A DNA stretch of 64,000 nucleotides from a virus. The notes below the pieces were generated by a model. The model was not told the DNA's origin. It saw only the letters and a list, made by a program, of their open reading frames with translations, and did not search any database. The DNA lies in IMG/VR virus record IMGVR_UViG_3300020049_016021; one strand, 5' to 3'. The position numbers were made by a program, and so were the translations under genes. This document shows, piece by piece, positions 24,992 through 64,000 of this stretch. Positions within the stretch are counted from its first letter, which is position 1, and every line of letters begins with the position of its first letter.

Positions 24992-24996
24992 ACGAA

Positions 24997-25660: not shown

Positions 25661-25697
25661 AGGGGTAGTAGGCTACAATCTGCTACCCCTTTTTTTA
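25661..25697 (+). terminator. Rho-independent terminator
   Basis: Stem GGGGTAG.../...CTACCCC followed by TTTTTTT. Confidence 0.5.
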
Positions 25698-25705
25698 TTT
25701 ATCTT

Positions 25706-30089: not shown

Positions 30090-30090
30090 C

Positions 30091-30645
30091 ATGAAACACA
30101 CTATAACAGCATTATTCCTCACTCCTGTCTTAGGGCTAAAGCAAAAGGCGCCAATAAACATGTATGATCCGGCATATTACCTTAGCACATACTCTGGAGA
30201 CAGTCATAGAGAGGAATACAAGAACTGAAAGAGCGGAGATTTTATTCTGCTCGAATACAACGAAACAATTCCGCAAACCCTAACCGAATACTTTCAGAGC
30301 CACCCTAGCTTTGTGGAGATGTACGAGCCGCAGAAGGCCAAACGTATCTTCGTATTTCGGTTACCGAAGGAGGTTAAAGAGGGATACACCTTTAAAATTT
30401 TGGAAGGTAAGTATTCAGAAGCGGATAGAAAAGTGGTGAACAAATACTTCCCAGCAGATCCTAGTCACTCACTCTACGGGAATCGGTTAATTTTCGATAA
30501 GAGTGAGCTTTGGCGACAAGAGTGGGAGAAAAAGGGTGTCTCTCTCCCTGAAGATGCAGAAGTGTATTCGAAACCATTTGCCAGAAATGAATTATACGGT
30601 TATGTACCAGAAACAAAACAAAGAAGTGCTAAGGTCTCTTTATAG
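30091..30645 (+). CDS. Hypothetical secreted protein; one in-frame TGA
   Basis: ATG 30091 with signal-like MKHTITALFLTPVLG; TGA 30226; joins to track ORF 30313..30645. Confidence 0.45.
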
Positions 30646-31060
30646 CGAAGGAGCAAAATATATAGGGATACTTCAGCGTTTCTTCAGTCCTGAGCGCTGA
30701 GCGCTAATTAGCCAAACCCAATCTCAAAGGGAAGAGGCTTTAAAGGTCCTAGGTATTACAGAAACAGACCTCACAAGAATCGAGGAAGAAAAGACGTTGG
30801 GAAGACGCGAAGTTATTCGTAGAGCAATTGCTCATTCTTCACCGTCCTTCGGAAGATTTCTAACCCAGGCCTACACTTATTATGAGGACCACAAAAAATC
30901 AACAGCTGTAGATGCTGATAATAAGGCTATTATCCTTGAAAAGATGAAGCAAAAGATGTCAACATGGAAACCCGAAACTTTAACAGCGGATGACCTTGCG
31001 TCTATAAATGTAGATCTTTACTTATTATCTAAAAACTCCCATAACAAATCTACAAGATAG
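30602..31060 (+). CDS. Hypothetical protein; one in-frame TGA (start uncertain)
   Basis: Track ORFs 30503..30700 and 30797..31060 are in the same frame across TGA 30698; ATG 30602 chosen to limit overlap. Confidence 0.4.
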
Positions 31061-34204: not shown

Positions 34205-34248
34205 AAAGCCCCTCCTCACCGTTATGGTGGGAAGGGGCCTAACTTTTT
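34205..34248. terminator. Bidirectional rho-independent terminator between convergent gene blocks
   Basis: Stem GCCCCTCCTCACC/GGTGGGAAGGGGC flanked by AAAAAA upstream and TTTTT downstream. Confidence 0.6.
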
Positions 34249-34256
34249 CTGCGCGT

Positions 34257-37200
34257 CTATGGGCGCACGGGTATTATCCCAAATAAATATTCACTGTCTT
34301 CAGCATCCTTAGAAAGAACGTCTGCTATCTGTAGTGATCCGGCAGTAAATGGCACTGCTCTAGCAACTGTCTTTAAGCCTTGGGGCCAACCGTCTCTATC
34401 AGTGTTCCCAGTAACTGGTGAAGCCATTAAGTCAAACAGAGCAATAGATGTCTTACCCATTTTGTCAATGGCCACAATTGGCTTTAAAGCTGTATCTACA
34501 AGATCAGTTAAATGAGCTCCACGAGTTAAATCTAAAATAGTTCTTTTTATAGACCTGCCAACATAAGACTTTTCTTCATCGTCGTCTAATCCAACCTTGA
34601 ATAGTACTAGTAGTAGCGTAAACCATCCAAATGTATTCAAAAGTCCAGCTAAAGCTCTAGCTCTGTGCCCTTTCAATGTATTTTCTCCAAGATTCTCTTC
34701 CGTTAGATACTGTTTACCTTTTCCAGATAGAGCTGCAAAGATAGAAGCTACAAGAACACGTAATTGACCTTCCATAACTTCAGAGTGCCATTGATAGACA
34801 GGCATACCATCAGGTTTTTGGCCCGTCAGTACATACTTACCCACAGTGATGTCTTTGTATGGAGCAGCAAATAAAACCTTTAGGTACTGGTAAAAATACT
34901 TGTGAAACTGCATAACAAAATCACCAAGTACGCTTACTTCTATTGCTGTCTTTTCTTCTTTACGATAAGAACCATTCAGTTTCTCATAGGCTCTTTTTAG
35001 AGACTTAACTTCAAGTGAAGTTAATTCCTTTAGGGAAGCATAGCTACCATCAGCTTGAAGGACTTGTCCTCGTTCTCCTATGGTCCAATTACCTTTGTTA
35101 TCGTAGGCATCCCACAATGTGACTTCTTTACCTGAAGCATCTTTTACTTTAATAGACTTCATTAACCCAGCTAGCTGCCAAAGAGCACCAAATGTTTCAC
35201 CAACTTGGTAGAACAAGAAGGCGTTAGTTGTACCATTTAGCTTTGATATTTGGTGAACTAGTCTATCATCGTTTACTTCAAATGGATAATTGTCTGGCAA
35301 CCAATCAAAGTTCTTTGCTATGTTCCAGAGTTTTGAGTCATCTTCTTGTCCTAAAAGCTTTGCTTTCATGTAATCTCTTAAGGCTACTCTTCCCCCATCT
35401 ATATTGATGGTTTCAAATGACTCTGGTGGAACTCCTAAGATGTTGGACATAAGTTTGTTAACAAGTCCCCTAGTTGATTGCGTAGTATTGGCTGCTGCAA
35501 TCATAACTGCGTTACGAATAGGAGACCACACTTTAAAAGAAAGCACAGAGTATGTTACAGAAGTCTTTAGTGCTCGGAGTATTCTATCCTGAGACACTAC
35601 TATGGGCGTCCCTTCGGGGATGTCCGTGAGTTTTTCTGTAAGTTTATTAGCCTTTAGAGTAATCTTTTTAGCAGAAACACTATCCTTAGTTGTATCCCCT
35701 AGAACCTGTAAAGTAATTTGAGAATCTAACCATTTTACCAGTCGATCATAACGAGGTTTTCCTGCCTCGTCCTTATCTTCTTGAAGACCATTATAGACGC
35801 CCATCGCAATATCGTATACCGGATCCAAACTCTCCTTCGCCTTCAAAGAAGCCATGAAATACTTAAAAGAAGCATCAACATTCCAACTATGGTTTACATC
35901 ACTGACTATAGAGGACCCGCTATGTTTAAAATACTTCAGAGGTAGACCATCTGATTCTTTTGTGTAAGCATCCTCCAAGAAATTAGTTAGGTTTCTTTTT
36001 ACGCTCTGTCCTACAACAGTTTTAAATCCAAAACCGCCAGCATAGAAAGCCTCTTCTTCACGAAGTTCAGCCAAAGGCTTTGGTATCCTAGGCAGGAAAT
36101 CTTCTGGTAATGTTTGAGGTATGCCCAACTTTTCATATCTGAATAATGGAACCGATGGATTATCAAACTTATATCCTACTACTGTATTTGCAAAGTTATC
36201 ATACTCATTTTTCATAGTAGAATACACAAAACTCCTATAATTTTTTTGGGCCTGTGTAAGCGGCACTTCTACGCCATCTTTCAAATAAGTATCCTGCAAA
36301 TTTAGATAGTACCCACCACGCTCTAAGTCGGAAGATTCTCTCCACATAAATGCAAAGTGATTCTTTGTTGTGGTGTTCATGGCTCTTGATAAGAGCTTAT
36401 GGGAAATAATACTACCGACAAACCATAGTGGAGAAAATGTGAAAAGTCCATACACATTAGCAACAGCTGCTCCACCAAGAAGTATCTTCTTGAGTAAACT
36501 TTGGTCTTCTTTATTAAGGGCAGCTTGGTACAGCTTATCATGTTCTGATTCTATTCCTAATAGATATTTCTGTGTCTTTGCCTTAGCATCCATAATTATC
36601 TTATGAAGTGTCTGGACTTTTGGATTAGAAATATCTGAAAAGTTCTTAAATTGCCAGAAAGACGAGAGATCCTCTGATTTACTGTTCAGATCTGTTGCGG
36701 CGTCCTTTTCTAGCTCGAGTATGGCGTCACTATATTTCTTTGACAGCACTCTAATATTAGGATCACTCTGAATTTCAGATTTTGTCTTCCCCTCATGCAA
36801 GATGCCTAATTTCTCTTTTAAATAAAGGTGTTTCTCCTTTGTGGATAAATGAGAAATACTATCCTGAAGCTCAATTATACTGGTAGCCTCACCCTTATAG
36901 GAAGACGCCTCTAACAACTTAGCTTCCTTTAACTTGTTATAAATCTCCGGATTAGTTTGCTTGTAGTAGTCTCCTATAGTGTACAAATACGGCTGGATGT
37001 CTAGCTCCATTATAGTTGCTTTCCCCTTGTAGTCTACCTTCACGAGCTTTATAGATCTAAACTTCATGTTAGGAAATTTTTCCTTTAACATGATAGCACG
37101 GTAGGTTAGTTCCAAATAACCCTTTGATAATTTAGAATCATTTATACCATACTTATCACCATAATCCATAAGATATGGTGTGCTCATATCACTAGTAAGA

Positions 37201-38780
37201 TTACCGGTTTTCCAGTCAAGAAGTGTAACATCTCCATTTTGATGGACAAATAATCCATCCGCTGTGGTTCCCAACTTATTTCCATCTGCATCAGTTAGAT
37301 ACTTTGATACCAAACCAATCTCTGGAGCAGCTTTGTCCTGCTTAGATCTTGGAATGCCCTTTGTACCTGTAGTATCTATCATAACACCAGAAGCGTCCAA
37401 TATGTTTTGAAAATTATCGTGGATCTTACTTAGGCGTGGATGAGCTTCTAGTGTAGTATAAGGTTCACCTAATTCTTGAGCATATCCAACAGCAAGTTGC
37501 TTAATTTTAGCCTTCTCGGTCGCATTATCTTCCAGTCTGTAATAGATATATGCGTGAACTAATTTACCAATTAATCTAGCTCCTTTAAAACGTTCTTCAA
37601 ATCCTGCAACAATCTCTGTAAACGAATAGGTATTTCCTCCGATAGTTATAGATTGGGTTACATCTTTAGGAGCAATTTTATCAATGTTTATTCCGCGCTG
37701 TTTATAGAAATTCTTAGCTGCCCCTTCAGCCGGAGTATCCATGAACCGTCTTGCTTTCTTAGAGAATTCTCCAAATAACTTGTCGCCTATAAAGGCAGTG
37801 AGACGTTTAGCAATATCAGTACCACTCTCATCTTGGTAAAAAGAACTAGTGTCAGATGTTGAATACTTAGCTGATTCTTTTAATAGTTCCGCAATGTAGT
37901 CAGGTGTTTCTGAAGCTTGCCCAGGAAACTTCTTCTTCATCATATCAGCCACTTCATCTAATCTCTGATAAGCCTCTGGAAGTTCGCTAGCACTTACATC
38001 TATTGGGGCTCTTCCCCTTAAATCCGCTACGGTTGAATAAGCAGTTAAAGAATTTTTTAATCCAAGAAGATCTCTAACAAATTGTAGAAAATAACTGAGA
38101 TAAAAAGAAGTTGGGTTCTTTACTGCTAGTCTAGCAAGATAATCTGTAACAACTTCTTCAGGATTTGAAGTATCTCTTGAATTAGCCGAATCTAATATAA
38201 CCTTAAATGTTTCTGGCTTCTGTAATCTCAAAAGATTTACAAAGGGGTGATAATATTCGTGAAAAGGCGTATCCTTTGTAGCATGGGCAGTGTTTACCAT
38301 TACTAACATTTGACCGTTTCTCTGAACGAATTTACCTTTCCATTTTATCGCTGGGGCATTTATAGTTTCAAAAGGAAATCCAAACTTCTTTGATAAATTA
38401 ACAAGTACGTTCTCTAGATCTTCTTTTGTGTACCCAGTGGAAAAGGCGGTTGTAGCAATTATCTCTTCTTTTGTTGGAGGAAATAAAGCCATTGTACCAC
38501 TAGACGTGCGTACGATGTCTCCATCTATCTTAGCATCTAAGCCGTCAAATCTGGCCGCAAAAAGATCTACAACACCAGAGAAATCTGCCACATCACCTAA
38601 ATAGTCAGTATACTTTTTAGTATAATATTCAAGATCTCTTCCAACCTCATTTGCAATTTTATCTCTTATGGGGGAGACTATTTCGGTGGGCTGTTGATGA
38701 AATTTAATTAGCGCTAGATCTTCTCCATATTTTGCTACTAGTTCTTTTCATTCCGCACTATTTTTATTTGGACAAATCAT
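34257..38780 (-). CDS. Large virion-associated protein (about 1507 aa with N-terminal extension; putative ejected/cargo protein); one in-frame TGA at codon 11
   Basis: Track ORF starts at GTG 38591. The frame stays open 63 codons upstream to ATG 38778-80 in a TAATG overlap with the stop of the upstream gene, crossing one TGA (38748-50). The extension reads as plausible protein (MICPNKNSAEWKELVAKYGEDLALIKFHQQPTEIV...). Confidence 0.55.
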
Positions 38781-41700
38781 TAGCAGTTATTTATTTTTTT
38801 ATAGACTTCAGTAAATTCTTCCATGGTTAGTTTTCCATCCTCTATTGCTGAAAATGTCTTTGAATCAAACATTAAAACAGAAAAGGTTTGAGATGTAACA
38901 TCTGTTATGTAGCCATAAGTGTTCTCCTTTAGATATACCACTTGGCCTACTTCTACGTCCGAAAATTCCCTAAGACTAGGAATGGTATGTTCTTTTGTTT
39001 CCTCGTTGAATGTTACCTCCACACTACCAAGAGCTCTTGGTATATTCAACTCAACTCTTCTTTGAGCTTCACTAAATCTAGTGTCGTGATTCAATGTTGC
39101 TGGTAGGTATCTATCAGAAAAACCTGTCTTTTTGTAAACAAGCCTAGCAAGAGCTCTTCTTGCATTAGGCCAAGTAGTTAGAGGTTCTAGTAATTCTTTT
39201 TCTACGTAAACATTAGCACTAGAAGGAATTTCATTTAATAACGTTATAGACTTATTTACCGCAGCTTGAACTTCTTCAGGAGTTGAATCCTTCGTAATGT
39301 GGGATAGTGGTAGTACTATACCCTCTTCTATTTCTGAAGTTGAGACTATTACATTATTCCGTTTTAGTGCCTTCTCCCTTATTTCCTTTATCTTATCTAC
39401 AACAACGGTTGTTCCAGTTCTACTTGATGTGAAAGATCCAGCCAGACTTCTGATAGCTGGAGCTACCTCGGTTTTTGTTAATGGAACCTTCGATTTAAAT
39501 CGGAGTGTGTACCTGTATTCAGTATCGGTCTGCCTTGCGTGCGTAACTTCATAGATAGTTAATTCTGTGCCGGATGCGTCTTGCCTATTAAAAGCGGCTA
39601 CTGTATCTCCTTTTTCAAGAATGTAACCATCGATAGCTTCGGTCAAAGTGCTACCTTGTATATTAGATCTATTTACTATTCTTCCATTAAACTCTAATTT
39701 ATCCAAACTAAAGGCAGTATCTATATCATTTATAGAAAATCTATAGTGAGGAGAACCCCCTGGCTCTGTTAGTTGCACATAGTATGTGTACTCACTTCCA
39801 GGAGTGTTTTTTAACATGTAGACTTCATTACCATATAAACGGATAAATCTAGGAGAATTATCTGAGAAAGGAACATTAAATTTTAAGTCAAAGTGTATCT
39901 TCTTGTCGGCGTAATTTGCAGTTCCATGGAATATCTTCTTATTTCCCCATGACATCTTTACATTTGCAATAGTCATTGGAGCAGTATCATTGCGCCTAAC
40001 CAAATCGGGTCTAGATCGAAGCATTTGAAATGTAAAGGCATCTTTTAGAAGAGATAGATTAATACCACTTCTAGCATCGTCTTTAGGTATGACTGCTTCT
40101 AGTCTTGCGTCCTGAGCATTTGAATAACCAATAGACCATTCGGCAGGGAATACAAGTGATAATCCAGTGCGTTCAAAATACATCCCGTCGCTTATAAGCG
40201 AATATTTAAATAGATCACGAGCAAAATCAGCCCAAGATGTTTCTGTTCCTGGTATTACCTCTTTATTATGTATAAGCTTTTCAAAGTCTTCCCTTATAAG
40301 TTCTAGCATCTCCTCATCACTTACCTTGTCTGCTACGATTTGAAGTTTTGTAACTTTATCTCTATTTGTTATAATCTCTAGGGCATTTAAGAACTCATTG
40401 CTAGAGTCAATACTCAGGACCTTACCGGCTGAAGAAATAAACTTTTGTCCCCAAGCTTCTTTCCCATAATAAGATTTTTTATCTGTGTGATAAACAGTAT
40501 CAGATGGAACGCTTGTGGAGAATGGGACACCATTTACATCAAAGTCTAAATCAGCACTAAGATATTTGATTAATTCTTTTGAAACCTCATCTGTCTTCTC
40601 TAGTTGATCGAACGGTGTGAATATATTAGTCTCATTTAGAAAACGATTTATAAATCCTTGCACTATCGGATTATAGACAAAGAAACTGTTTTCTAAGATC
40701 TTCTTGTAAAGAAGTAGTGCTCTATAAGCGGCTAACACGTGTGGAAGCCTAAGAGGTGTAGAATTTTCAAAGGCAGAATTATCAGAAGGCTTTATCTTTC
40801 TTGATAAACTTCTCCTAAGAATTTTGTTTACAAAAGTGGCCCTGATCTGAGCAAAATAGAAATCTGATAGATCTGGATTTTCCTTATACTTATCTAGTCT
40901 CTCTTTAAGTAGCTTTTCAGCTGTTTCCTCTGATTCTTCAAGAGCAGCCTTATATTCTGCTGATTCCCTAAAGGTTTCTGCTAGTGTTTCCACAAGTACC
41001 TTTTGTAGTTCAGCACCCCTGTTACTTTCATCTGCGAACTTGGTATATCTTTCAATCTTTCCTATTACAGAATCTACTTTCCAACGTTTGTTTGGTAATC
41101 CTCGCAAAGAACTATACACCTGGCTATGAGTAAACAATTCTTCTCCTACTGGGATAAGTTTCCTTAGGTTTGAAAGTACAACTAGATCTGAAATAAGTCT
41201 ATCGATTCCTCTTGTTTTACCTATGTATATGGAATCAAGTGTTGAGGTTTCAATCGATAATCGACCGAAAGCCATGCTTATGCCCTTCTGTTTCTGAACG
41301 GCTCCTATGAGCTTATCCGCTTGCTCAGGGTATAATTCATAAAGGCGGTTTTGCCAATTATCATCTTTTATAAGCTCATCCGTAAGCTTAACGAGTTCTT
41401 TTCTTAATTTCTCTGAAGTCCAACGCCCACCCTCACTTAGGGCAGTTACTGCTGGAGTTTTAAATATTCTAGAAACAGTATTCAACGGAAAGCCAAATCC
41501 AAGAAATGTTAAGAACAAATTAGCATTATTATTAGTAATACCTAATATGTGCAGTTTTTGCATCTTAACGTTGTCAATAGCCAAGTTGATTATTGTATCT
41601 ATGGTTTCAAATACATTCTTCTGTTTTTCATCAAGTCTGGAAAATCCAGATATAGTTGTTCCATTTACGGTGGTCTTAAAGATATCTTTTAGTCTAACAG

Positions 41701-42226
41701 CTTCTCGTTTTTGAATCCTGAACCCAATATTTTTTTGTATTAGGCCTTCTATAGTAGCTGCTTTATTTGCTACTAAAACCTTATTTAATTCGGTACTGCC
41801 TGCCATATAGACAAAGTTATCAGGACCAATTACAGATTCTATTGGAGTTGTACTTAGAAGATATGAAAACATCTTACCAAAGTTGGCCGCAATACCAGTA
41901 AGAGAGATACCAGAATAGGTATTATATCTTATCTGTTCTTGAGCACTGAAGTCTGTTAATTGTCCTTGTGCTGTTAAAGCGGCATCAACTTCTTCTTGAC
42001 TTTGAAAAGCCCTAACTTCTTTGTTATTTTTTTGGCTTTCAAGAGCAGCCCAAACTTCTGATAAAGAAGGTTCTTGAGCGTATGGATCATACCGTTCTAT
42101 TAGTGTTTCAGCAAGAGGAGAAAGGGGCTCAGTACTTAAGCCCCCTAATCCATTCTCGAAAACAAACGCCCTAAATTCCTCTACAGAGAATTCTTTTTCG
42201 TTTACAATTATTTTACAATCTAGCAT
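38780..42226 (-). CDS. Large virion-associated protein (1148 aa), function unknown
   Basis: Uninterrupted 1148-aa ORF; ATG overlaps the stop of the 4095-aa gene. Confidence 0.65.
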   Translation of the reverse strand: MLDCKIIVNEKEFSVEEFRAFVFENGLGGLSTEPLSPLAETLIERYDPYAQEPSLSEVWAALESQKNNKEVRAFQSQEEVDAALTAQGQLTDFSAQEQIRYNTYSGISLTGIAANFGKMFSYLLSTTPIESVIGPDNFVYMAGSTELNKVLVANKAATIEGLIQKNIGFRIQKREAVRLKDIFKTTVNGTTISGFSRLDEKQKNVFETIDTIINLAIDNVKMQKLHILGITNNNANLFLTFLGFGFPLNTVSRIFKTPAVTALSEGGRWTSEKLRKELVKLTDELIKDDNWQNRLYELYPEQADKLIGAVQKQKGISMAFGRLSIETSTLDSIYIGKTRGIDRLISDLVVLSNLRKLIPVGEELFTHSQVYSSLRGLPNKRWKVDSVIGKIERYTKFADESNRGAELQKVLVETLAETFRESAEYKAALEESEETAEKLLKERLDKYKENPDLSDFYFAQIRATFVNKILRRSLSRKIKPSDNSAFENSTPLRLPHVLAAYRALLLYKKILENSFFVYNPIVQGFINRFLNETNIFTPFDQLEKTDEVSKELIKYLSADLDFDVNGVPFSTSVPSDTVYHTDKKSYYGKEAWGQKFISSAGKVLSIDSSNEFLNALEIITNRDKVTKLQIVADKVSDEEMLELIREDFEKLIHNKEVIPGTETSWADFARDLFKYSLISDGMYFERTGLSLVFPAEWSIGYSNAQDARLEAVIPKDDARSGINLSLLKDAFTFQMLRSRPDLVRRNDTAPMTIANVKMSWGNKKIFHGTANYADKKIHFDLKFNVPFSDNSPRFIRLYGNEVYMLKNTPGSEYTYYVQLTEPGGSPHYRFSINDIDTAFSLDKLEFNGRIVNRSNIQGSTLTEAIDGYILEKGDTVAAFNRQDASGTELTIYEVTHARQTDTEYRYTLRFKSKVPLTKTEVAPAIRSLAGSFTSSRTGTTVVVDKIKEIREKALKRNNVIVSTSEIEEGIVLPLSHITKDSTPEEVQAAVNKSITLLNEIPSSANVYVEKELLEPLTTWPNARRALARLVYKKTGFSDRYLPATLNHDTRFSEAQRRVELNIPRALGSVEVTFNEETKEHTIPSLREFSDVEVGQVVYLKENTYGYITDVTSQTFSVLMFDSKTFSAIEDGKLTMEEFTEVYKKINNC

Positions 42227-54507: not shown

Positions 54508-54509
54508 AA

Positions 54510-56408: not shown

Positions 56409-59151
56409 AACTGTTTAGGATTCTTTTATAAACTTCTGGATACATACTTTTTAGAATTTGAATTTGATCGTATCCCTGTTTCTTGGCATTTAAGGCCTGT
56501 CCAAAATTACCAAGAGAATTAAATGCTGTATCTACGGCTTCCTTATAGGCAGCTCTATTTTGAGCATTTATTTCATTTGTTGTTTGTGTTTGCGCATTAT
56601 TGTAGCGCCTCTGATTGGAGATTCTTCCCTCATATTCAGTTAGAGCTCCAGCATTCATTTGTCCGTACTGAGTTGCTACCTGACTGTCAGCATTTAATTT
56701 TGTTGCTAGCATTCTATTAGCAAAAGCCCTACGAGCATTTATAGACCCAACCTCTAAATTAGAAAGACTGCTATCGAAACTTCTTTGACTTTGATACAAA
56801 GCCTGCGTAGGATCAAATATCCTTTTAGTTATAGAAGTATTGTCATATTGAGCTTTTTCTCTTTCTGGTCCTCCTGCCAATTGCCCAAATTTAGACAATA
56901 CTTCAACACCCTGAAGAGCATCCCCTATTGTAAATTTCTCCGCACTACCAGTCCTCTGTTGTCCAGTTGTATTGTTTAGAACTTTTAAAGCCTCAGAAGG
57001 ACTAGTTGTTCCTGTAGTTTTTCTAATACTCTCTACTTTATTATTAGTCATCGGCAGTTGCTCAAAAGGTTTCATAGTCAATCCTTGATTAGCTAATACA
57101 CCGAAACTATTATCCAAACTTCCATCTTCTGGCATGCGCAGTACTCCAAGAGTATTCGTTGGAGAAGTTTCTGCTACAGTTCTTGCTCTTGATTGTGGAA
57201 CCCCTGCACTTTGTGTAGGTGGTAATGCCCCTTTTACAGGCTCTTTAGTATTAGGACTTACAGGCTCTTTAGTATTAGGACTTACAGGCTCTTTAGTGTA
57301 AGGAATAATCTGCCCTTGGCTACTCAGGGGCGTTCCATCAGGCACTTTCCATTGAGTTTGGGTGTTCTCCATAGGATACTTACGCTTATGTTGTTCAATA
57401 GCTGCGCGGGTTAATTTATTTCGTAACCCTGGTCCTGCGTCTTCTATAACGGTATACTCACCCATGCGATCTCTTTTTAAGAATCTGTCTGTATATGGAT
57501 CATAGTAATTTCCAGTATATAATCCCATATTACGTTTTTCTAAAAGCATATATGGAGCGGGATTTTTTGCTGAATATTGAGTTGTTGGTCCACTTGGTTC
57601 TCTCAACTGAAAAGAAAGTTGATTCTTTAAATTGGCTATTGGATCTTCAAAATCTACTGTCTCTTGAATTCTTGGTGTGTTTGCTTGTTGTGTTTGAGCA
57701 TTAATGGGATATTGTTGCTTGTGTTGTTCAATCGCTTCTCTTGAAAGCTTATTGCGTAATCCTGGGCCAGCATCACTAATAACTGAATATTCTCCCATTC
57801 TATCCCGTTTTAAAAAACGATCCTTATACGGATCATAATACGTTCCAGTATATAACCCCATTTTTTGTTGTTCCACAAGCATATAAGGATACTCTGGATC
57901 ACCTGGGTCCATGGAGCCACCAGTAGCATAACTATTAGTGTTTCCTCTTAGCCCTAATCTTGTAGCCACACCTTCTTGAGTGGTAGCTAAACTTTGATTA
58001 GCCTTGTTTGCAAATTCGATAGTATTCTGACTAATACTATCATAAGGAGTTGTCTTGAGTCTTTTCTCTGCTTTACCCGCAGCAATCTCTGATAATCTAG
58101 CCAAAGATGCAAATGATTGATTTGTCTTTGGATCTGTTAGTTGATTTGAATAAACAAATCTATTCTTTACCACTTCATTATGGTCTAATCGTACATTCTT
58201 TGTTGGGTAATAATTCCCATCAACCTGATTTGGGTTACCTTGCACTTGGAAAGCGGAGTCAGAAAGCTCTATGTCACCCCCTGTAGCAAATCCAGTAGAA
58301 AATTTTTTCTTTTGTGGCGTACCATGCGACTTTGAACCAATATTAAAATCTTTGGACAATACGTCTATATCCGCAATAGGAACACTCGCATACTTATTAC
58401 TTTTTGTATCGTGTACAAAAATTTCTGATGGCGAGAAGCTGTTTTGTATAAAAACATAGTTATCAACTGATCCTATTTTGTCAAAATTAGCTGGATTATT
58501 GCCTAATTTTCCACTACTATTCTGCCACCCACTTTCTCTACCTAGGGCCTTAAGAAACTTTTGTTGATACTGTGGATCAGTCTCAACACCGATAAACTTT
58601 AGTGGCTTTGGATTTCGTTGTGGTGTGGGCCTATGTCGCTGGTTTGCATCATCTCCAAAAAATCCAGTATTTGTTGTATCAATTTTGGTTGGGCCCCCAA
58701 CAGGACCACCAGTAGCCCGTTCTCGAAAACGATCTCTTGATTTACTATAAGAAGCTGTTCCGCGTTGTTTTGGTAATGCAGCAGTCATATTACCAAGCAA
58801 CCCATTTAAAACCGTTGAAGGTTGCGTAATCGGTTGTGTTGTGTTGGATATTTTAGGATTAGTTATGATAGGTTTATAAATTGGGCCGCCATTGTTATAT
58901 GCTCCTGGAGTAGCTGATAACACCATCTGAGCACGTTGTCTTTCATCTTTCTTCTTTTTAAGAAGTTCGGAGATTAGCCCTATACCCCCAGAAGACACAA
59001 CATTACCCCAATTCACTTTATAGGGATCTTGTGTTGCGTCAGCTTCATAGCTACTTACACTTAATAATTGTTGAGCCGCATTTGTTGCTAGCCCAACTAC
59101 AGAGCTAATGGCTCCGCCTGAAAAATACTTTTTTTGGGATTTTGTTTTCAT
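56398..59151 (-). CDS. Virion structural protein (917 aa) with internal tandem duplications (possible tail or ejection protein)
   Basis: Uninterrupted ORF; two about 61-aa repeats and a TKEPVSPN triple repeat; Gly/Asn/Gln/Thr-rich. Confidence 0.6.
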   Translation of the reverse strand: MKTKSQKKYFSGGAISSVVGLATNAAQQLLSVSSYEADATQDPYKVNWGNVVSSGGIGLISELLKKKKDERQRAQMVLSATPGAYNNGGPIYKPIITNPKISNTTQPITQPSTVLNGLLGNMTAALPKQRGTASYSKSRDRFRERATGGPVGGPTKIDTTNTGFFGDDANQRHRPTPQRNPKPLKFIGVETDPQYQQKFLKALGRESGWQNSSGKLGNNPANFDKIGSVDNYVFIQNSFSPSEIFVHDTKSNKYASVPIADIDVLSKDFNIGSKSHGTPQKKKFSTGFATGGDIELSDSAFQVQGNPNQVDGNYYPTKNVRLDHNEVVKNRFVYSNQLTDPKTNQSFASLARLSEIAAGKAEKRLKTTPYDSISQNTIEFANKANQSLATTQEGVATRLGLRGNTNSYATGGSMDPGDPEYPYMLVEQQKMGLYTGTYYDPYKDRFLKRDRMGEYSVISDAGPGLRNKLSREAIEQHKQQYPINAQTQQANTPRIQETVDFEDPIANLKNQLSFQLREPSGPTTQYSAKNPAPYMLLEKRNMGLYTGNYYDPYTDRFLKRDRMGEYTVIEDAGPGLRNKLTRAAIEQHKRKYPMENTQTQWKVPDGTPLSSQGQIIPYTKEPVSPNTKEPVSPNTKEPVKGALPPTQSAGVPQSRARTVAETSPTNTLGVLRMPEDGSLDNSFGVLANQGLTMKPFEQLPMTNNKVESIRKTTGTTSPSEALKVLNNTTGQQRTGSAEKFTIGDALQGVEVLSKFGQLAGGPEREKAQYDNTSITKRIFDPTQALYQSQRSFDSSLSNLEVGSINARRAFANRMLATKLNADSQVATQYGQMNAGALTEYEGRISNQRRYNNAQTQTTNEINAQNRAAYKEAVDTAFNSLGNFGQALNAKKQGYDQIQILKSMYPEVYKRILNSYGG
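57232..57305 (-). repeat. 24-bp tandem repeat (about 3 copies) encoding (TKEPVSPN)x3
   Basis: Direct repeats ACAGGCTCTTTAGTATTAGGACTT on the plus strand. Confidence 0.7.
57373..57888 (-). repeat. Intragenic duplication: two 183-nt copies (57373-57555 and 57706-57888) encoding PYML(V/L)E..MGLYTG.YYDPY.DRFLKRDRMGEY.VI.DAGPGLRNKL..AAIEQHK..YP
   Basis: About 75% identical 61-aa units at residues 422-482 and 533-593 of the 917-aa protein. Confidence 0.7.
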
Positions 59152-62100
59152 TATCGATTACGATTTTGAATTTGTGTTCCAAGCAGGTCTAAAGTTATTT
59201 TACTGTCTTCTGTTGGATTAAAGAACAACCTTACGCCTAAGTAGTAATCCCTAAAACGGGCACTTTCATATAAAGGTTTTTCTGGATCTATATTTGAAAA
59301 ATTAACTGTCTTATCTATGTAGGAAAACGGAGAGGACGCTTTGGCTGCCCAAGAAGAATCCCAAATAGGTTGCGTAGGTGCGATTGTCAGGTCGCGTATG
59401 TTGTTTATTCGCCACTGTCTATCGGTCTTCTTGACTAGGGATAGAGTATTAAAAGTATCCATCTGAAAATTAGAAGGCTGGACAAGTGGTTGTTCTCCTG
59501 TGCTTTGGGTGCTGTTATAGAATATTACCGTATTATACGTTTCTTTCGTAGGATATTCTTCTAATGTATTTGCACTTTTTGCAAAAGCCAGAGCCGAGTA
59601 GTCTATTGAAGAGGTTACCTTCGCTTCTTTTGGATTCTTAAATGCTATGAGATCAATTATGTGCGGATACTTAGACCCGTAAAAAGTCTGATAATTTCCA
59701 TCGAAGTGTTTGTAGATTTCACTATACCCATTTTGTGTAAAGAAGGTATTTGAATTAGCAAACAAATAGTTTGGAAGATACGAATGAAAAGAAGTCCAGT
59801 GTTGATTTATAAAAGAATAAGATAACGTGAAAGACCTATTCTCAAAATAAGTTATGTTATCAAAATCAATACTTTGAACGGTACCTGTTGGGGGATTATA
59901 GTAAAAGGAGTGACCATTAAAGAATATCTTATCGGGCGTAGTATACAGTGCTGGAAGATCATATTCAGTTGGGTAGTAAACAAACTTGTTTGTCCACTGG
60001 GGTAGCAACTTGAAATCTCGTTTATGCACTAATAATCGTTTATGCCTGGGATCATAGGTTGTTTTATAACCAACCCCTATAGGTGAAGCGTGAGATATAT
60101 ATGGAAACTTTGTGCTAGTTAACTGTTCAAATTGCTTTAGATACTCAAGTTCTCCATTTTCTTGCCAGAAATTACGTATTCCAGTTAAGGATAAATCATT
60201 TAATTTATCTGTTAATAATAGCGGGTGCCCTGCTAAGGAATCAATATAAGCAGCACCATATTCCGTTTGAATTCTAGATGAGAAATGAGCCTGACCTGCA
60301 AAGGCAAGATTACTGTTCTTTAGTTCCATTGGCGGAATACTAAAAACTTCCCCAGTACCTAGATACACATTATCTATATCAGTTTGGAGCGTTTGCGCTT
60401 GCACTGGTAATCTGTAAACTGATCTAGTTGTTGTAGCATACAGATGTCCAAAATTTACAAATAAGTCAGTTATTGGTCCAGTTGTTCCCCCTATTTTATC
60501 CGTATAATTGTTCTGTAAGATAATTCTACTCTTATCAACTAAACTCTCATTGTCATCTGTTTGGGAAGCATATACCCTATATGGGTGATCTTCAATACAC
60601 ATATTACAATATTGATAAGCAAATTGAACTGGGTAATCATAAACTATCCCATCTAAGAAAGAATAAGATTTATTATATAGGTACCGTTCTTGGTAGTAGG
60701 CAAAAGATTTGTCTGCGACCTTGTACAGTTTCTGCTTCATGTAATTCCTTAGATGCTGGTGATTGTCAGCCATCGTAGGCGGATTCTTTGGTTGGAAATA
60801 GGAGAATTCTCTTTTAGTTTTTGAACCGTGTCTAAATCCATAATTAAGCAGAGTATCTTGTGTCGGAAAAGACAACATATATGTATCATAATCCAAAGTC
60901 ACAGAATCACTATCTCCTGATACCGGTACGCCTGTTTGACGGTAGTTAAAGTCAACCATTGTTAACCGAGAAACCGCTGTGTCTCCACCATACATAGTAA
61001 ATGAGGTACTAGGAGAACCTTCTCTTGATAAGCAGTTATTGAAGCGTTTAAATTTCACCTCAAATAAATTAGAGAACACATCTAAATATTGATAGATGGC
61101 CCCGTAGTACAATTTTCCTCTCCAATTTCCGCCAGCATTTTGTATGTCTGCCGCGCCAGAATTGAGCCTAATTATCTGGAAATTTGTATTAATACTATTA
61201 TTTATAAATGTAGTATTTGATAAGGGCTCATACACTTCATTGCCTTCTTGTGCACCAGGGTAGGACTTTGGACAAAAGATGTCGGTACGCATACCATGCA
61301 CTAGATTAGTTTCACTGGGATTAGCATATTTAGTGAAATACCTAAATTGTGTGGTAGCATCTACTGTTCCTTTATAGTCATCATTTTGATCTAATAACTG
61401 ATCTGGGAGGAGTGCGCTTTCTGTAATAGAAGCATTATTTGCTATTTGATTTGCATCCCAATATATCTTCTCGAACTTAACAAATGCACCTCTGCTTGTC
61501 TTTTCATTTAGTAAAAGATCACTGCTAATAAAGGCGTAGAGATTTTTCAGTATCCCTGTATTTGGTGGTGGAGTGGGCACATAATCAGTAGCAGATATTG
61601 TTGAAGGATCAAGTATTTGTCTTGAGGCTGCATGAATTGGAATAAATGCTCCTTTAGCTAGTATTCGCCTCTCAAAGGTTCTGTCGCCATAAACAAAGTA
61701 GTGCCCTACGATGTCTTCGTCTGGTGGGTATTCTACATTAGAAAACTTAACACCTGTCCTAAAAGCATGAGCAGCGCCAGACCCATCACGTATTTCGGCT
61801 CCTGGCATCCTATGATGACGAATTTTGGTAACACCTGGAACTATAAGATTCCCGTGCCAATCTCTTCCCCAGTAACCATCTGGTAAATTCTCACAAGTTG
61901 GTATGTCAGGATAAGTAGCATTATCTGATTCATGGTAACCAGGAAGTCCTGTTAAGGAGGCACCATATTGTACAGCTGTTGATATTTGTCCCCAACGTCT
62001 AGTATAGACTGTACCCTCTCCATATTGCTTTATGCCAGTATCCCAAGGATTGCCGTCTGTAGCAACACCCCCAGTGCCTATATATGGGTTAGCTCCATTT

Positions 62101-63371
62101 ACTGGAATGTCTGTATCAGCGGCTCTTCCTACAGTATAAAATACAGGAGAAACTTGGCCAGTATTAAATACATACACAATACCGAAAGGGTAGACCTCAT
62201 CTTCCATAAGAGAGCCGTCACCAAAATAATAACTAGCCATCTTGCTCTTATAATCTATATCAGAGTTGATGGGTACCTTTACAAATTCAGTTTTTATTTT
62301 TGAAGCGTACTGTTGGTACTTTGTGTAGTCTTTGTAAGCTTTGGATGAATTAGCTAAAAACAGCTTGTCCATGTTGAAAGCCTGAGCAGCGATCTTCTTT
62401 ATTTGAACTGTTGGAGTTAAAATATCGTCAAGTGTCACACTACCTTTTATCTGGTCAGCTGTTCCTGTGTACAGAAAAGCGGCTGTACCATTTATCCATG
62501 GCTGAGCATGGAGCAGATCAACACCAGATATTTCTCCTTCATCGCTTGTTCTCTTTATAACAGCCACTTGATAGTAATCAAATAAATCGTCTGTACCTGT
62601 TATTAGAAAGGAGATGGCCTTATTGGTCTTATTTACAAAGGAGTCTGAATCAGGAACATTTGATCCCCCATCATACATGTGTACAGTTGCTGTGCTCCCA
62701 TGATAACTATAGGGTTCATCTGCTATTGCTACTGGTCTGGTAACAATGGTCCATTGAGTAGCATTCTGATATTTATCCAGAAACCTAACTGCAAAATAGT
62801 AGACACCTATCTCCAGCTGTCCACCAGCATTCTCAACTATGCCGGAATTATTTGTACCTTTATAAAGATTAAAGCAAGGGATAAAGTAATCTCTTGAGAA
62901 ATCCATCTTTGGGCACCAGTAACTGCCTCCTAATTCGTATTGTGCTAGATCGTTTAGATTTAGAACTTTATAGGTATTGAGATTATCAGTAAAATAGACA
63001 TAAGGATCACACCCATTTCTTAGCTTATACAGAGCATTAATAGGATACTTATCAGAAAAATTAAGGCATGGTGCAACAAGTATCGTTGAGTAAGTGCAGG
63101 TGGCTGAGTTTAATTTTCCTATTTCGTGTTGACCTAATGGATCATATAGAAACAGTATGACATCATCATGTTCGTTAACTACAGAACCTATTATCTTCTT
63201 GTTGCCAGTAAAATTTGTAGAACAAGTTTGGTTGCCACCCTCACTAGAAATGGAAGGAAGATGGCCTTGTGTTGTTTCTAACACCGCATTTAGAGCAAAC
63301 CTATAAGATCCTTCTTCTTGGTATTTTGGGTGAGAGTCCGTATTTAGGCCTTTTGTAAATAAATTATCCAT
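59151..63371 (-). CDS. Large structural protein (1406 aa), Tyr/Asn/Gly/Thr-rich; putative tail fiber or tail-associated protein
   Basis: Uninterrupted ORF; composition typical of receptor-binding or tail proteins; TAATG coupling on both sides. Confidence 0.55.
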   Translation of the reverse strand: MDNLFTKGLNTDSHPKYQEEGSYRFALNAVLETTQGHLPSISSEGGNQTCSTNFTGNKKIIGSVVNEHDDVILFLYDPLGQHEIGKLNSATCTYSTILVAPCLNFSDKYPINALYKLRNGCDPYVYFTDNLNTYKVLNLNDLAQYELGGSYWCPKMDFSRDYFIPCFNLYKGTNNSGIVENAGGQLEIGVYYFAVRFLDKYQNATQWTIVTRPVAIADEPYSYHGSTATVHMYDGGSNVPDSDSFVNKTNKAISFLITGTDDLFDYYQVAVIKRTSDEGEISGVDLLHAQPWINGTAAFLYTGTADQIKGSVTLDDILTPTVQIKKIAAQAFNMDKLFLANSSKAYKDYTKYQQYASKIKTEFVKVPINSDIDYKSKMASYYFGDGSLMEDEVYPFGIVYVFNTGQVSPVFYTVGRAADTDIPVNGANPYIGTGGVATDGNPWDTGIKQYGEGTVYTRRWGQISTAVQYGASLTGLPGYHESDNATYPDIPTCENLPDGYWGRDWHGNLIVPGVTKIRHHRMPGAEIRDGSGAAHAFRTGVKFSNVEYPPDEDIVGHYFVYGDRTFERRILAKGAFIPIHAASRQILDPSTISATDYVPTPPPNTGILKNLYAFISSDLLLNEKTSRGAFVKFEKIYWDANQIANNASITESALLPDQLLDQNDDYKGTVDATTQFRYFTKYANPSETNLVHGMRTDIFCPKSYPGAQEGNEVYEPLSNTTFINNSINTNFQIIRLNSGAADIQNAGGNWRGKLYYGAIYQYLDVFSNLFEVKFKRFNNCLSREGSPSTSFTMYGGDTAVSRLTMVDFNYRQTGVPVSGDSDSVTLDYDTYMLSFPTQDTLLNYGFRHGSKTKREFSYFQPKNPPTMADNHQHLRNYMKQKLYKVADKSFAYYQERYLYNKSYSFLDGIVYDYPVQFAYQYCNMCIEDHPYRVYASQTDDNESLVDKSRIILQNNYTDKIGGTTGPITDLFVNFGHLYATTTRSVYRLPVQAQTLQTDIDNVYLGTGEVFSIPPMELKNSNLAFAGQAHFSSRIQTEYGAAYIDSLAGHPLLLTDKLNDLSLTGIRNFWQENGELEYLKQFEQLTSTKFPYISHASPIGVGYKTTYDPRHKRLLVHKRDFKLLPQWTNKFVYYPTEYDLPALYTTPDKIFFNGHSFYYNPPTGTVQSIDFDNITYFENRSFTLSYSFINQHWTSFHSYLPNYLFANSNTFFTQNGYSEIYKHFDGNYQTFYGSKYPHIIDLIAFKNPKEAKVTSSIDYSALAFAKSANTLEEYPTKETYNTVIFYNSTQSTGEQPLVQPSNFQMDTFNTLSLVKKTDRQWRINNIRDLTIAPTQPIWDSSWAAKASSPFSYIDKTVNFSNIDPEKPLYESARFRDYYLGVRLFFNPTEDSKITLDLLGTQIQNRNR

Positions 63372-64000
63372 TAGAATCCTATGTTTTCTTGACTACTTAG
63401 TCCTCCAAACAATCCATCAAAGGCACGTGTTCTTGGGACTAATCTATTACGTTGATTCTTTATATTTTCTAACACAGATAGTTCAGGAAGATTTAAGTTA
63501 AGGGCCTTCTTAGATAAAGTTGACCACATACTAAGATGGAAACTGACCCTCTGCGTGGCTCCCTCTTCTTTCATAAGATCCTTAGCTAGCCAATACTTAT
63601 ATAGTACATAATGAGTAAGGGCCTCTTTTACAGTCTCATCGTCAGGGATAAGAATATCACCATCTTCATCAACAGGTACTGCTAAATAACTTATATTCAA
63701 TTGGCCTGTTCTAAAGCTGGTAGTAAACACACCACCAGGAGAAAGGTGAAATTCATAGGTACAGTTATTGCAAAGACATAGTGTGCTGTCAACACATATT
63801 CCTGTTATAAATGTATTTGTAGAGGCTCGCATACGATATGTCTTGTTGTTATCAATGGCGAGTACTTGTACAATATACTTTAAATCTTCTGGAGCTGTTG
63901 CTTTGTGTTCAACAACCTCAACAATAGCTGTCTTAGCTTCGTAGCGACTCTCCAGATTCATTTGTAAAAATCCTTTTGCGGCATGCTCTAACATGACAGC
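63371..64000 (-). CDS. Structural-module protein, 5' end possibly beyond the window
   Basis: ORF 63371..63994 (207 aa) abuts the window edge; stop overlaps the start of the 1406-aa gene. Confidence 0.45.
   Translation of the reverse strand, partial: AVMLEHAAKGFLQMNLESRYEAKTAIVEVVEHKATAPEDLKYIVQVLAIDNNKTYRMRASTNTFITGICVDSTLCLCNNCTYEFHLSPGGVFTTSFRTGQLNISYLAVPVDEDGDILIPDDETVKEALTHYVLYKYWLAKDLMKEEGATQRVSFHLSMWSTLSKKALNLNLPELSVLENIKNQRNRLVPRTRAFDGLFGGLSSQENIGF

Follow-up and report, generated by a model that had tools for sequence, protein, structure and literature searches.

Introduction

Stop-codon recoding in phages has been reported mostly in late genes (PMC7886860), with structural and lysis genes recoded and replication genes often standard-coded (10.1101/2021.08.26.457843). 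In multi-code genomes described with Mgcod, the 'dual-coded' block was reported to be enriched in early genes (Pfennig, Lomsadze and Borodovsky, 10.1101/2022.06.29.495998). Phages of Gracilibacteria and Absconditabacteria, whose hosts use code 25 (TGA = Gly), have no in-frame TGA genome-wide and place different stop codons in close succession where genes end (PMC10746230).

The window analysed here, a 64,000-nucleotide stretch of IMG/VR record IMGVR_UViG_3300020049_016021, represents some two thirds of a crAss-like phage genome of roughly 100 kb. Its source lineage is environmental, whereas the published recoded crAss-like phages are from the gut (PMC7886860, 10.1101/2021.08.26.457843). Like the code-4 crAss-like phages (Yutin et al. 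2021, PMC7886860; Borges et al.), it has TGA at Trp positions of conserved genes and recoding limited to part of the genome, and, like most code-4 phages (10.1101/2021.08.26.457843), it has no easily detected suppressor tRNA. Unlike them, with their recoded codons in late structural and lysis genes and their replication genes standard or variable, it carries its TGAs in the replication module (33% of Trp codons), while the virion block has 1/136. The published norm is the opposite polarity (PMC7886860, 10.1101/2021.08.26.457843, 10.1101/2022.06.29.495998), a reversal originally predicted from the window alone.

As in the Mgcod multi-code genomes, blocks differ in TGA use, one of them encodes identical proteins whether read in code 11 or code 4, and one regime change coincides with a strand switch; here, however, the dual-coded block is the late block of virion and giant genes rather than an early one, there are three regimes instead of two, and the second change falls inside one strand. 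The late block, together with close backup stops behind the TGAs at 12335, 13181, 14293 and 17355, resembles the code-neutral phages of PMC10746230, but neutrality is confined to one module and elsewhere this phage depends on TGA = Trp.

Genome layout and three TGA regimes

The closest cultured relatives are Flavobacterium and Cellulophaga phages. A crAss-type tail ring protein is present in the window (Pfam CrAss_Ring_1, PF24228, E=1.5e-27), and CrAss_Ring_2 and Crass_capsid were found on contigs of the same phage (L014, L032, L096). A rightward replication module lies opposite leftward giant virion genes, followed by tail and capsid genes, the same layout as in phi14:2 (KC821624) and FPSV-S29 (MK764449). 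The genome falls into three TGA regimes: TGA is a stop in the left block, Trp in the replication block and, with one exception, neither in the virion/giant block. One change of regime lies at the strand switch, at 34.2 kb, and the other within one strand, near 11.6-14.3 kb. The features of the left and replication blocks and their boundaries are:

62..11556, + strand: left block with standard-code behaviour; 8/18 genes end in TGA; internal TGA 0, TGG 43
11592..11620, + strand: terminator-like hairpin with T run; candidate boundary between 'TGA = stop' and 'TGA = Trp' units
14292..31060, + strand: replication block; TGA 24, TGG 48 (33% of 72 Trp); all stops TAA or TAG
15480-17366, + strand: PolA; TGA 4, TGG 6
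19166-20350, + strand: helicase
23025-24023, + strand: DnaB-like gene
25965-26918, + strand: primase
29064-30089, + strand: PD-(D/E)XK nuclease
34208..34240: long hairpin where the convergent + and - blocks meet, with an A run and a T run on opposite sides

As first delimited (1-14300), the left block has 11/23 genes ending in TGA, in agreement with the predicted share of about 50%. Several of these stops fall in ATGA start/stop overlaps, and the MoxR-like gene at 5293-6330, closed by a TGA, stops at the same residue as do the orthologs of the relatives L035 and L037. Backup TAA or TAG codons behind the left-block TGA stops are distant (3-72 codons), whereas past the 11592-11620 hairpin the four gene-terminal TGAs named above all have TAA or TAG 2-4 codons on. 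L035, L036 and L037 have, at the corresponding position, blocks in which TGA-terminated ORFs and ATGA overlaps are likewise frequent. Coverage by standard-code ORFs is 85% in the left block (1-14300) and 65% in the replication block. The 34208-34240 hairpin follows immediately on the TGA stop of gene 33474-34202; this stretch is kept in the closest relative and the upstream gene is not.

TGA as a Trp codon in replication genes

On the evidence of alignments, the replication genes use TGA as a sense codon, with the meaning Trp. The share, 24/72 (33%), is somewhat below the roughly 40% first estimated, and the estimate for PolA (4 of about 10 Trp) was borne out. Pfam alignments for PolA, helicase, DnaB_C and DUF3799 run across in-frame TGAs, and a PDB alignment with Taq polymerase crosses the TGA at PolA residue 259. 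In six relatives the window TGAs pair with TGG or TGA, TGG being the dominant partner codon; other codons opposite them are mainly aromatic or hydrophobic, with none for Ser and none for Gly.

TGA-Trp codons are not spread evenly along genes. Their median relative position is 0.30, against 0.62 for TGG (p=0.002), and in five relatives TGA-Trp is shifted toward 5' ends as well, a clustering that suggests inefficient or conditional decoding of TGA. Some replication genes lack TGA in every genome (for example 27281-27982, with 0/31 Trp codons), so gene-specific factors besides length must be at work.

TGA in the late genes

Seven genes occupy the minus strand of the window:

34257..38780, - strand: last giant gene, 1507 aa from ATG 38780; TAG stop
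38748..38750, - strand: the late block's one in-frame TGA, a Trp codon at position 11 of the 1507-aa gene
38780..42226, - strand: giant gene, 1148 aa; TAA stop; TGA 0, TGG 9
42220..54507, - strand: giant gene, 4095 aa; TAG stop; TGA 0, TGG 22
54510..56408, - strand: late gene, 632 aa; TAA stop; TGA 0
56398..59151, - strand: late gene, 917 aa; TAA stop; TGA 0
59151..63371, - strand: virion structural protein, 1406 aa; TAA stop; TGA 0, TGG 15
63371..64000, - strand: tail ring protein 1 (CrAss_Ring_1, PF24228); ORF 63371-63994, N-terminus cut by the window end

Their stops are TAA in five cases and TAG in two, with no TGA, as originally described. When the block was scanned with only TAA and TAG counted as stops, one in-frame TGA appeared inside genes, giving 1 TGA against 69 TGG in these seven genes (the giants); a further 23 late-strand genes from near-identical strains added no TGA, so that the 30 known late-strand genes of this phage together hold 1 TGA and 135 TGG, short late genes included among the TGA-free. 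Since any standard-code ORF lacks internal TGA by construction, the information lies in how the block differs from the replication block and in the missing TGA stops. Under codes 11 and 4 the late block yields identical proteins, except that one protein differs in its first 63 residues. The capsid gene contains an intron with an HNH gene, a weakly selected ORF in the late region, which has 2 TGA and 3 TGG.

The exceptional protein is the product of the last giant gene. The single TGA had been correctly placed at codon 11, in a gene then given as 1444 aa, which is the length of the standard-code ORF (34257-38591, from GTG 38591); because ATG 38780 overlaps the TAA of the upstream gene as TAATG, the gene is 1507 aa. 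The ortholog in the closest relative, L034, is 68% identical across residues 1-1507 and begins MICPNKKSPEW, keeping the N-terminus MICPNK..EW; it has TGG at codon 11, and the TGA is therefore a real Trp codon. The L034 ortholog of the adjacent 1148-aa gene (38780-42226) is likewise without TGA.

The 4095-aa protein contains an internal P-loop helicase-like domain (Pfam AAA_30, E=2.2e-10; PHROG 325) and gave zero matches to PDB sequences. The exact DFDxD motif of the giant virion RNA polymerase is absent from it, the nearest forms being DYDVD (aa 3911) and DVDVD (aa 2508), and Pfam, PHROG and PDB searches returned no RNA polymerase match. The 1406-aa protein matches PHROG 15100, 'virion structural protein' (E=4e-92), lies at the position of the crAss muzzle protein and is 28% identical to a 'structural protein' of Flavobacterium phage FPSV-S29. 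Tail ring protein 1 is complete in L014, at 233 aa. In that same near-identical strain the 917-aa gene (56398-59151) is only 660 aa.

Three TGAs in late genes of relatives align to window TGG codons: the L001 ortholog of the 632-aa gene has TGA at Trp223, and the L001 and L002 orthologs of the 1406-aa gene have TGA opposite window TGG codons.

The asymmetry in relatives

In the window, Trp codons are TGA/TGG 24/48 in the replication block and 1/69 in the giants (Fisher p=1.9e-7; p=8.5e-12 against all 30 late-strand genes). Among relatives, TGA makes up 23-35% of Trp codons in replication genes (six relatives) and 3-17% in late genes (five); pooled, replication stands at 107/239 and late at 19/245 (p=9e-14). 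The excess of TGA in replication genes over late genes is thus lineage-wide, present in every relative examined. Late depletion is quantitative rather than absolute: TGA is decodable in late genes, because relatives (3-17%) and the window phage (one codon) carry TGA-Trp there.

The lack of late TGA stops is a different matter. Standard-code relatives almost lack them too (FPSV-S29 1/35, phi14:2 2/30), and their absence here is therefore an ordinary, inherited trait; 0 TGA stops in 7 genes is also non-significant alone, and P(0 in 30 genes at a 5% rate) = 0.21. The original prediction would have been undone if non-recoded relatives also lacked TGA, making the pattern compositional; this holds for the stops and fails for the asymmetry in TGA-Trp.

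A candidate suppressor tRNA

No suppressor tRNA with a UCA anticodon was found within the window, and no canonical one in ~90 kb of this phage and near-identical strains. Outside the window, at 8129-8225 of contig L097, lies a 97-nt cloverleaf with the anticodon loop CUUCAAA, a non-canonical UCA tRNA that ARAGORN misses. It occurs in strains of ~95% nucleotide identity (L097, L098, L099, L102), its sequence identical among three sister contigs, and with 11 differences in a distant recoded relative, L104. Both copies have 31/31 standard pairs, with three compensatory double changes, a covariation that comes from two distinct sequences only and whose values 54/500 shuffles reach. The candidate is absent from both standard-code relatives, and an exact-pattern scan of IMG/VR did not find it in contigs of the three closest relatives. 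For the window's own strain the tRNA was not found: in L096, the contig nearest the window, only ~16 nt of the locus are left, with a different 3' half behind an HNH ORF. The locus lies upstream of the chaperonin, terminase and portal genes, on the late-gene strand.

The fold is tRNA-Sec-like (8/5): the acceptor stem has 8 bp and the T stem 5 bp, the D stem is long and its loop has 4 nt, and the variable arm is long. Both tRNA-Sec and the tRNA-Sec-like 'allo' tRNAs reportedly read UGA (Mukai et al. 2016-2017), and the candidate shares all these features with them, as well as the UCA anticodon. Unlike tRNA-Sec, it scores 29.9 bits with the Rfam tRNA-Sec model, under the gathering score of 47, and the TGAs are at Trp positions in many genes; there was no sign of a SECIS-dependent system. 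Such a shape would suit SerRS more naturally than TrpRS, and charging with Trp is presumed. This phage-encoded, structurally unusual candidate is the likely agent of UGA = Trp.

Discussion

We lean towards the explanation that late TGA-Trp is scarce through purifying selection against a codon that is inefficiently or conditionally decoded. The lineage decodes UGA as Trp, probably by means of the candidate UCA tRNA, and competition between this tRNA and release factor 2 would cost each TGA a part of the product. That cost should be larger the more codons have already been translated and the higher the expression, and would be greatest in abundant virion proteins and ORFs of 1000-4000 codons; in low-copy replication enzymes, and above all near 5' ends, a TGA would be tolerable. 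The lack of late TGA stops is inherited from standard-code ancestors, in which late genes already favoured TAA, and TGA stops would further be kept out of late genes because they terminate unreliably once the suppressor is present. We infer both this competition-cost mechanism and when each block is expressed, the likely levels and timing of expression being taken from homology with phi14:2.

The sole late TGA sits very early, at codon 11 of 1507, as such a cost predicts. Late genes are under stronger translational selection, with an ENC of 47.6, compared with 53.1 for the replication block and 56.2 for the left block. Against the cost model, ORF length alone fails to account for the late block, where short genes are TGA-free too; moreover, in published recoded phages it is the abundant structural genes that are recoded (10.1101/2021.08.26.457843), and high expression therefore does not generally forbid recoded codons.

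A second reading, compatible with the cost model but one we hold only tentatively, makes the code switch a timer. The left block would be translated in the naive cell with TGA as stop, replication genes would wait for the suppressor tRNA with their 5' TGAs as cheap checkpoints, and virion genes would be code-neutral, translated while decoding is ambiguous or declining. Three sharply different TGA regimes in one genome speak for it, as do the change in backup stops from 3-72 to 2-4 codons past the hairpin, the 5' bias in the window and five relatives, the TGA-stop and ATGA-rich blocks of L035, L036 and L037, and the whole-genome code neutrality known in other phages (PMC10746230). However, in phi14:2 the injected virion RNA polymerase transcribes the whole rightward replicative module, which forms the earliest class, so a gate on this module would delay the first essential functions, and the candidate tRNA is encoded on the late-gene strand. 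Nor is neutrality required, as late TGA-Trp occurs in relatives and in the window phage; the original suggestion that structural genes must be translatable under both decodings, which is the root of this reading, stands only in so far as they can be.

In its boldest and still doubtful form, UGA would have two working meanings in one genome, split by transcription unit or time, with the candidate tRNA-Sec-like tRNA as the switch, replication rather than lysis gated through 5' TGAs, and virion genes deliberately code-neutral. If this were true, recoded stop codons would serve phages generally as a timing device, one that can be connected to different stages, and the apparent lack of a suppressor in most code-4 phages could be due to a class of suppressor tRNA missed by standard tools.

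It is improbable that the host natively reads UGA as Trp (code 4), with no switch and late genes merely preferring the better-served TGG. No canonical suppressor was detected in ~90 kb, as this would predict, and suppressors are detectable in only about 1/3 of code-4 phages (10.1101/2021.08.26.457843). Yet the 11/23 left-block genes ending in TGA, often in ATGA overlaps and with the next TAA or TAG up to 72 codons on, would not terminate in such a host. Genuine code-4 bacteria, moreover, write 80-90% of their Trp codons as TGA (quoted in 10.1101/2022.06.29.495998), and even the replication block reaches only 33%. A 5' bias of TGA is unexpected under efficient native decoding, and a conserved phage tRNA with a UCA anticodon exists. 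In addition, the hosts of the nearest cultured relatives are Flavobacteriia, bacteria with the standard genetic code.

The original prediction had also allowed for modules of different origin. This idea, considered here as a recent acquisition of the virion block from a non-recoded phage, now largely refuted and very unlikely, could draw on GC3 (0.28 in the late block, 0.35 in the replication block) and on the exchange of modules among crAss-like genomes, such as the switch of DNA polymerase type (PMC7886860). Codon usage instead ties the two blocks together (RSCU r=0.95, the top of the three block pairs), and their mean protein identities to the window are near-equal in four relatives (62/66, 52/48, 52/47 and 40/37%). 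The late block also holds a genuine TGA-Trp codon, and the asymmetry, recurring in all relatives, must predate their divergence.

Chance, base composition or small counts, which can appeal to the TGA-free nature of standard-code ORFs by definition and to the non-significant 0 in 7 stops, are the least credible explanation and already refuted for the sense-codon asymmetry by the Fisher values for Trp codon choice and by composition itself: third positions are AT-richest in the late block (lowest GC3), the A-ending fractions of two-fold Lys, Glu, Gln, Leu and Arg codons are alike among all blocks, and off-frame TGA occurs at 26-29 per 1000 in each.

Genome layout and nearest relatives

Small and medium genes occupy the plus strand of the window over 1-34.2 kb, and seven large ORFs fill the minus strand from 34,257 to 64,000. 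At the far end of this minus-strand block, profile searches identified virion genes:

Last minus-strand ORF, truncated at the window edge (-): crAss tail ring protein 1 (Pfam PF24228, E=1.5e-27)
Gene beside ring protein 1, 1406 aa (-): member of a PHROG of virion structural proteins (E=4e-92)

The 1406-aa protein and the 4095-aa protein had no match among PDB sequences, and a motif search found no virion RNA polymerase. Megablast of 44 kb of the window returned no DNA-level similarity to GenBank phages. By protein, the nearest isolates are phages of Flavobacterium psychrophilum (28% identity) and of Cellulophaga, with which the window shares its architecture, a rightward replication block leading to leftward genes for giant, tail and capsid proteins. 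No relative of the AAA protein at 10159-11556 was found in the related-locus search; the sole relative returned by a metagenome scan is 32% identical. L027, a 99,991-bp JGI contig of the same phage, differs from the window by 11 mismatches across an 11 kb overlap, and another 14 kb (L014 and L032) and 11 kb (L096) of late-strand sequence came from near-identical strains. The minus-strand gene at 56398-59151 encodes 917 aa in the window and 660 aa in the contigs L014 and L015, so that otherwise near-identical strains differ here by a long in-frame stretch. L027 also has a match to the Pistol ribozyme at 88-144 (+), some 2.8 kb beyond the left end of the window (Rfam RF02679, 35.6 bits, gathering 34.5).

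TGA encodes tryptophan in the replication genes

Read with the standard code, the replication genes lack essential N-terminal regions; they are complete when TGA is read through. PolA then has both its exonuclease and its polymerase domain, and the DnaB-like helicase, the primase and a PD-(D/E)XK nuclease are likewise restored; another helicase is complete too, its Walker A motif falling between two TGAs. The alignment with Taq polymerase crosses the TGA at PolA residue 259 uninterrupted. Compared with six relatives, the window TGAs between 14,331 and 30,226 mostly face TGA or TGG, otherwise mainly Phe, Leu and Tyr codons, and never Ser. Even the TGA three codons ahead of the PolA end is a sense codon rather than a stop, since it is TGG in four relatives sharing the same C-terminus.

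Curated gene models of the block 14,292-31,060 contain 24 TGA and 48 TGG codons, with all stops TAA or TAG. TGA is absent, in the window and in all six relatives, from the genes at 17366-18463, 18556-19173, 20302-21471 and 27281-27982. The last of these belongs to PHROG 12143, with TGA at 0 of 31 Trp codons, and like the other three it has no assigned function. A group I intron (24311-24639, +; Rfam RF00028, 64.4 bits, E about 1e-14) separates ORFs 24026-24346 and 24602-24991, which are probably one intron-split gene, judging from its continuous form in the related loci L016, L009 and L017. Both exons carry a TGA-Trp codon.

Late genes are nearly free of TGA

The seven minus-strand ORFs end in TAA (5) or TAG (2) and contain a single in-frame TGA, at 38750-38748, both as claimed in the original prediction. 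The length of 1444 aa given there for the TGA-bearing gene was not upheld: it belongs to a standard-code ORF beginning at GTG 38591, whereas ATG 38780, which overlaps the TAA of the upstream gene as TAATG, gives 1507 aa and makes the TGA codon 11. In L034, the closest relative, the ortholog (68% identity, aligned from residue 1) starts MICPNKKSPEW and has TGG at codon 11, so the TGA is a true Trp codon. A further 23 late-strand genes of the same phage, including those for chaperonin, terminase-like protein, portal protein, tail proteins and ring protein 2, have no TGA inside and stop only at TAA or TAG. Together the 30 late-strand genes have 1 TGA to 135 TGG, and 23 TAA, 7 TAG and 0 TGA stops.

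The missing TGA stops are ordinary. Among standard-code relatives, Flavobacterium phage FPSV-S29 has TGA stops in 1/35 late-block genes vs 12/56 early and replication genes, and Cellulophaga phage phi14:2 in 2/30 vs 12/70 other genes; at a 5% rate, zero in 30 genes has a probability of 0.21. Because both phages nearly lack them too, the late-block lack of TGA stops looks ancestral. A want of TGA in non-recoded relatives, which had been named as the observation that would make the pattern merely compositional, is thus found for stops but does not extend to the asymmetry in sense codons.

The asymmetry is lineage-wide

The reversed TGA-Trp distribution is real and lineage-wide. Trp codon choice differs between modules, as had been claimed, with Fisher p=1.9e-7 for replication genes vs giants and p=8.5e-12 vs all 30 late genes. 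For the relatives, only best alignments with curated window genes were counted, as HSP-based counting could be inflated by conserved off-frame ORFs. The TGA share of Trp codons is 35, 34, 34, 26, 23 and 28% in the replication genes of six relatives, and 3, 7, 8, 9 and 17% in the late genes of five (pooled, 107/239 vs 19/245, p=9e-14). Three of the relatives' late TGAs align to TGG codons of the window, and therefore late genes with TGA do exist in the lineage, if rarely; the window phage is the low extreme for late TGA (p=0.003 vs relatives).

Base composition was rejected as the cause of the asymmetry, as the controls point the opposite way: GC3 is lowest in the late block (0.28 vs 0.35 and 0.39), the A-ending share of the other two-fold R-ending codons is alike across blocks, and off-frame TGA occurs at 26-29 per 1000 in every block. 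The original prediction had offered two explanations. The first, that structural genes are translatable under both decoding regimes, holds as a description, whereas separate origins of the modules can be rejected, because both blocks are equally diverged in relatives (mean identity to the window 62/66, 52/48, 52/47 and 40/37% for the two blocks of each) and their codon preferences agree (r=0.95, replication vs late block).

A third regime on the plus strand

Left of the replication genes, the block 62-14,295 has no internal TGA vs 53 TGG, and TGA closes 11 of its 23 genes. Coverage by standard-code ORFs is 85% here vs 65% in the replication block. Many of the TGA ends form ATGA overlaps with the start of the next gene, and the next in-frame TAA or TAG comes 3 to 72 codons on, within that following gene. 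The TGA end of a MoxR-like ATPase falls at the same residue in the window and in the related loci L035 (then TAG directly) and L037 (TAG three codons later), and blocks rich in TGA-terminated ORFs occupy the equivalent place in three distant relatives. Several lines of sequence evidence therefore indicate that TGA acts as a stop here, up to the following feature:

11,592-11,620: strong terminator-like hairpin, separating two kinds of gene end

Past it, the gene-terminal TGAs (12335, 13181, 14293 and 17355) all have a TAA or TAG no more than two to four codons further on, as expected where TGA is read through. The L016 ortholog has TAA exactly at the window's TGA 14,293, and in the following gene, 40 nt on, codon 14 is a conserved TGA-Trp. 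The genome thus has three TGA regimes, and we infer their exact plus-strand boundary to lie between 11.6 and 14.3 kb.

The left block also encodes, at 5293-7457 (+), the MoxR-like AAA ATPase followed with an ATGA overlap by a VWA-domain protein, and two glucosaminidase-domain proteins at 4390-5193 and 9454-9933 (+) (all families from the L027 contig annotation and a Pfam scan). Strong terminator-like hairpins with T runs lie at 7-32 and 304-332 (+), one of them just past the TGA-terminated gene 62-277.

Possible causes of TGA avoidance in late genes

The late block has the most biased codon use (ENC 47.6 vs 53.1 and 56.2 elsewhere), which is consistent with stronger translational selection. 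Within the window replication genes, TGA-Trp codons lie at a median relative position of 0.30 vs 0.62 for TGG (Mann-Whitney p=0.002), with 13/24 TGAs vs 12/48 TGGs in the first third of the gene. The 5' bias has the same direction in five relatives (p from 0.001 to 0.085), and the sole late TGA is codon 11 of 1507. If translation may end at any TGA, a later TGA wastes a longer product, and such a bias would follow; it would follow as well if TGAs are cheap early checkpoints, but is unexpected under native efficient UGA reading.

We favour the view that the reversed TGA-Trp distribution is maintained by selection, with cost as the main cause of late TGA avoidance: a suppressor tRNA would compete with release factor, and TGA would be purged from abundant and very long proteins. 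The intron-borne HNH gene within the capsid gene has 2 TGA and 3 TGG, five codons that hint that TGAs arise and persist within the late region at sites presumably under weak selection. One group I intron splits the major capsid protein gene in L096 (10132-10963), and two do so in the strain contig L097 (19064-19287, 21237-21379); the first intron carries the HNH ORF. In L097 a LAGLIDADG ORF also breaks up the terminase-like gene.

Two observations speak against cost acting alone: short late genes lack TGA as well, and some replication-block genes, such as 27281-27982, never have it in any genome. Gating, with TGA codons placed as regulatory checkpoints, is a substantial alternative that can coexist with cost, and genes needed before TGA is decodable would look like the four TGA-free genes of the replication block. 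Gating alone fits poorly with phi14:2, where the rightward module as a whole belongs to the earliest temporal class and the giants to the middle and late ones.

On the leading account of phage recoding, late structural and lysis proteins are withheld for as long as no suppressor is present; an entire lineage of opposite polarity shows that this does not hold generally. Earlier work has established stop-codon recoding in crAss-like phages, block-wise code use and dual-coded blocks (PMC7886860, 10.1101/2021.08.26.457843, 10.1101/2022.06.29.495998), and has described code-neutral phage genomes with clustered stops (PMC10746230). Unlike in published recoded crAss-like phages, here the polarity is reversed, with replication genes recoded and virion genes neutral, and we found no report of this in open-access literature text. 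Further differences from published recoded phages are the third regime, with TGA as terminator, on the same strand, the 5' positional bias of TGA codons and a candidate suppressor tRNA of non-canonical shape. With its 5' bias, always-TGA-free genes and close backup stops, the lineage is a natural test system for tolerated costs versus regulatory gates. Such genomes will be mis-annotated by gene callers that assume a single code for a whole genome or strand.

A candidate suppressor tRNA

ARAGORN and Rfam found no tRNA in the window, L027, L014, L032, L034, L096 or the related locus L041; ARAGORN found no suppressor tRNA in any locus, and when introns were allowed its calls were all doubtful. 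No release factor, tRNA synthetase or tRNA-modifying enzyme turned up in PHROG and Pfam scans of 20 further plus-strand proteins. L097, a strain of about 95% nucleotide identity, was reached via the chaperonin gene, about 2 kb upstream of which a 1-kb gene-free gap contains two RNA genes. An exact-pattern IMG/VR scan found a copy of the second in L104, a distant recoded relative with proteins 37-40% identical to the window's:

L097 7788-8051 (+): tmRNA (Rfam RF00023, 55.1 bits, gathering 47), missed by ARAGORN
L097 8129-8225 (+): 97-nt cloverleaf, candidate tRNA(UCA), 80 nt past the tmRNA; anticodon loop CUUCAAA, giving anticodon UCA
L104 3180-3276 (+): copy of the candidate tRNA(UCA) in the syntenic place, with 11 differences from the L097 copy

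Neither ARAGORN nor the general Rfam tRNA model picks up the candidate, which is seen solely by the Rfam tRNA-Sec model, below threshold (29.9 bits). Its acceptor stem measures 8 bp and its T stem 5 bp; the D stem is long and closed by a loop of 4 nt, and the variable arm is long as well. Three other contigs of the same phage carry the candidate in identical form. Between L097 and L104, 31/31 pairs are standard in both and three pairs are changed on both sides, compensatory changes that, with only two distinct sequences, give suggestive support. A covariance model from the two copies found none in the window or the two standard-code relatives. Six pattern matches among 185,579 bacterial and archaeal genomes were by sequence chance matches, not tRNAs, and so no host or donor was identified.

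In L096, the contig closest to the window strain, positions 1-445 hold an HNH endonuclease ORF and then a different T arm and acceptor 3' half at the tRNA locus. The match to L097 is limited to the final 16 nt or so and the downstream flank, and the tRNA gene may here be interrupted by an intron or replaced. As to the amino acid carried by the candidate, codon alignments point to Trp, whereas its class-II shape would suggest Ser. A tmRNA beside a stop-codon suppressor could rescue ribosomes reading through host stops. The candidate is a concrete lead on recoded phages that seemingly have no suppressor.

L104 also has a normal tRNA-Ser(UGA) at 1428-1511, whose anticodon stem, CUAGU/ACUAG, is the same as that of the candidate tRNA(UCA). 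Near the start of the rightward block, L097 has a DUF805b RNA motif at c(43-77) (45.3 bits), a tRNA-like gene with a 29-nt anticodon-loop insertion at c(298-388) (RF00005, 47.5 bits) and a weak short tRNA-like match at 2300-2364 (29.9 bits).
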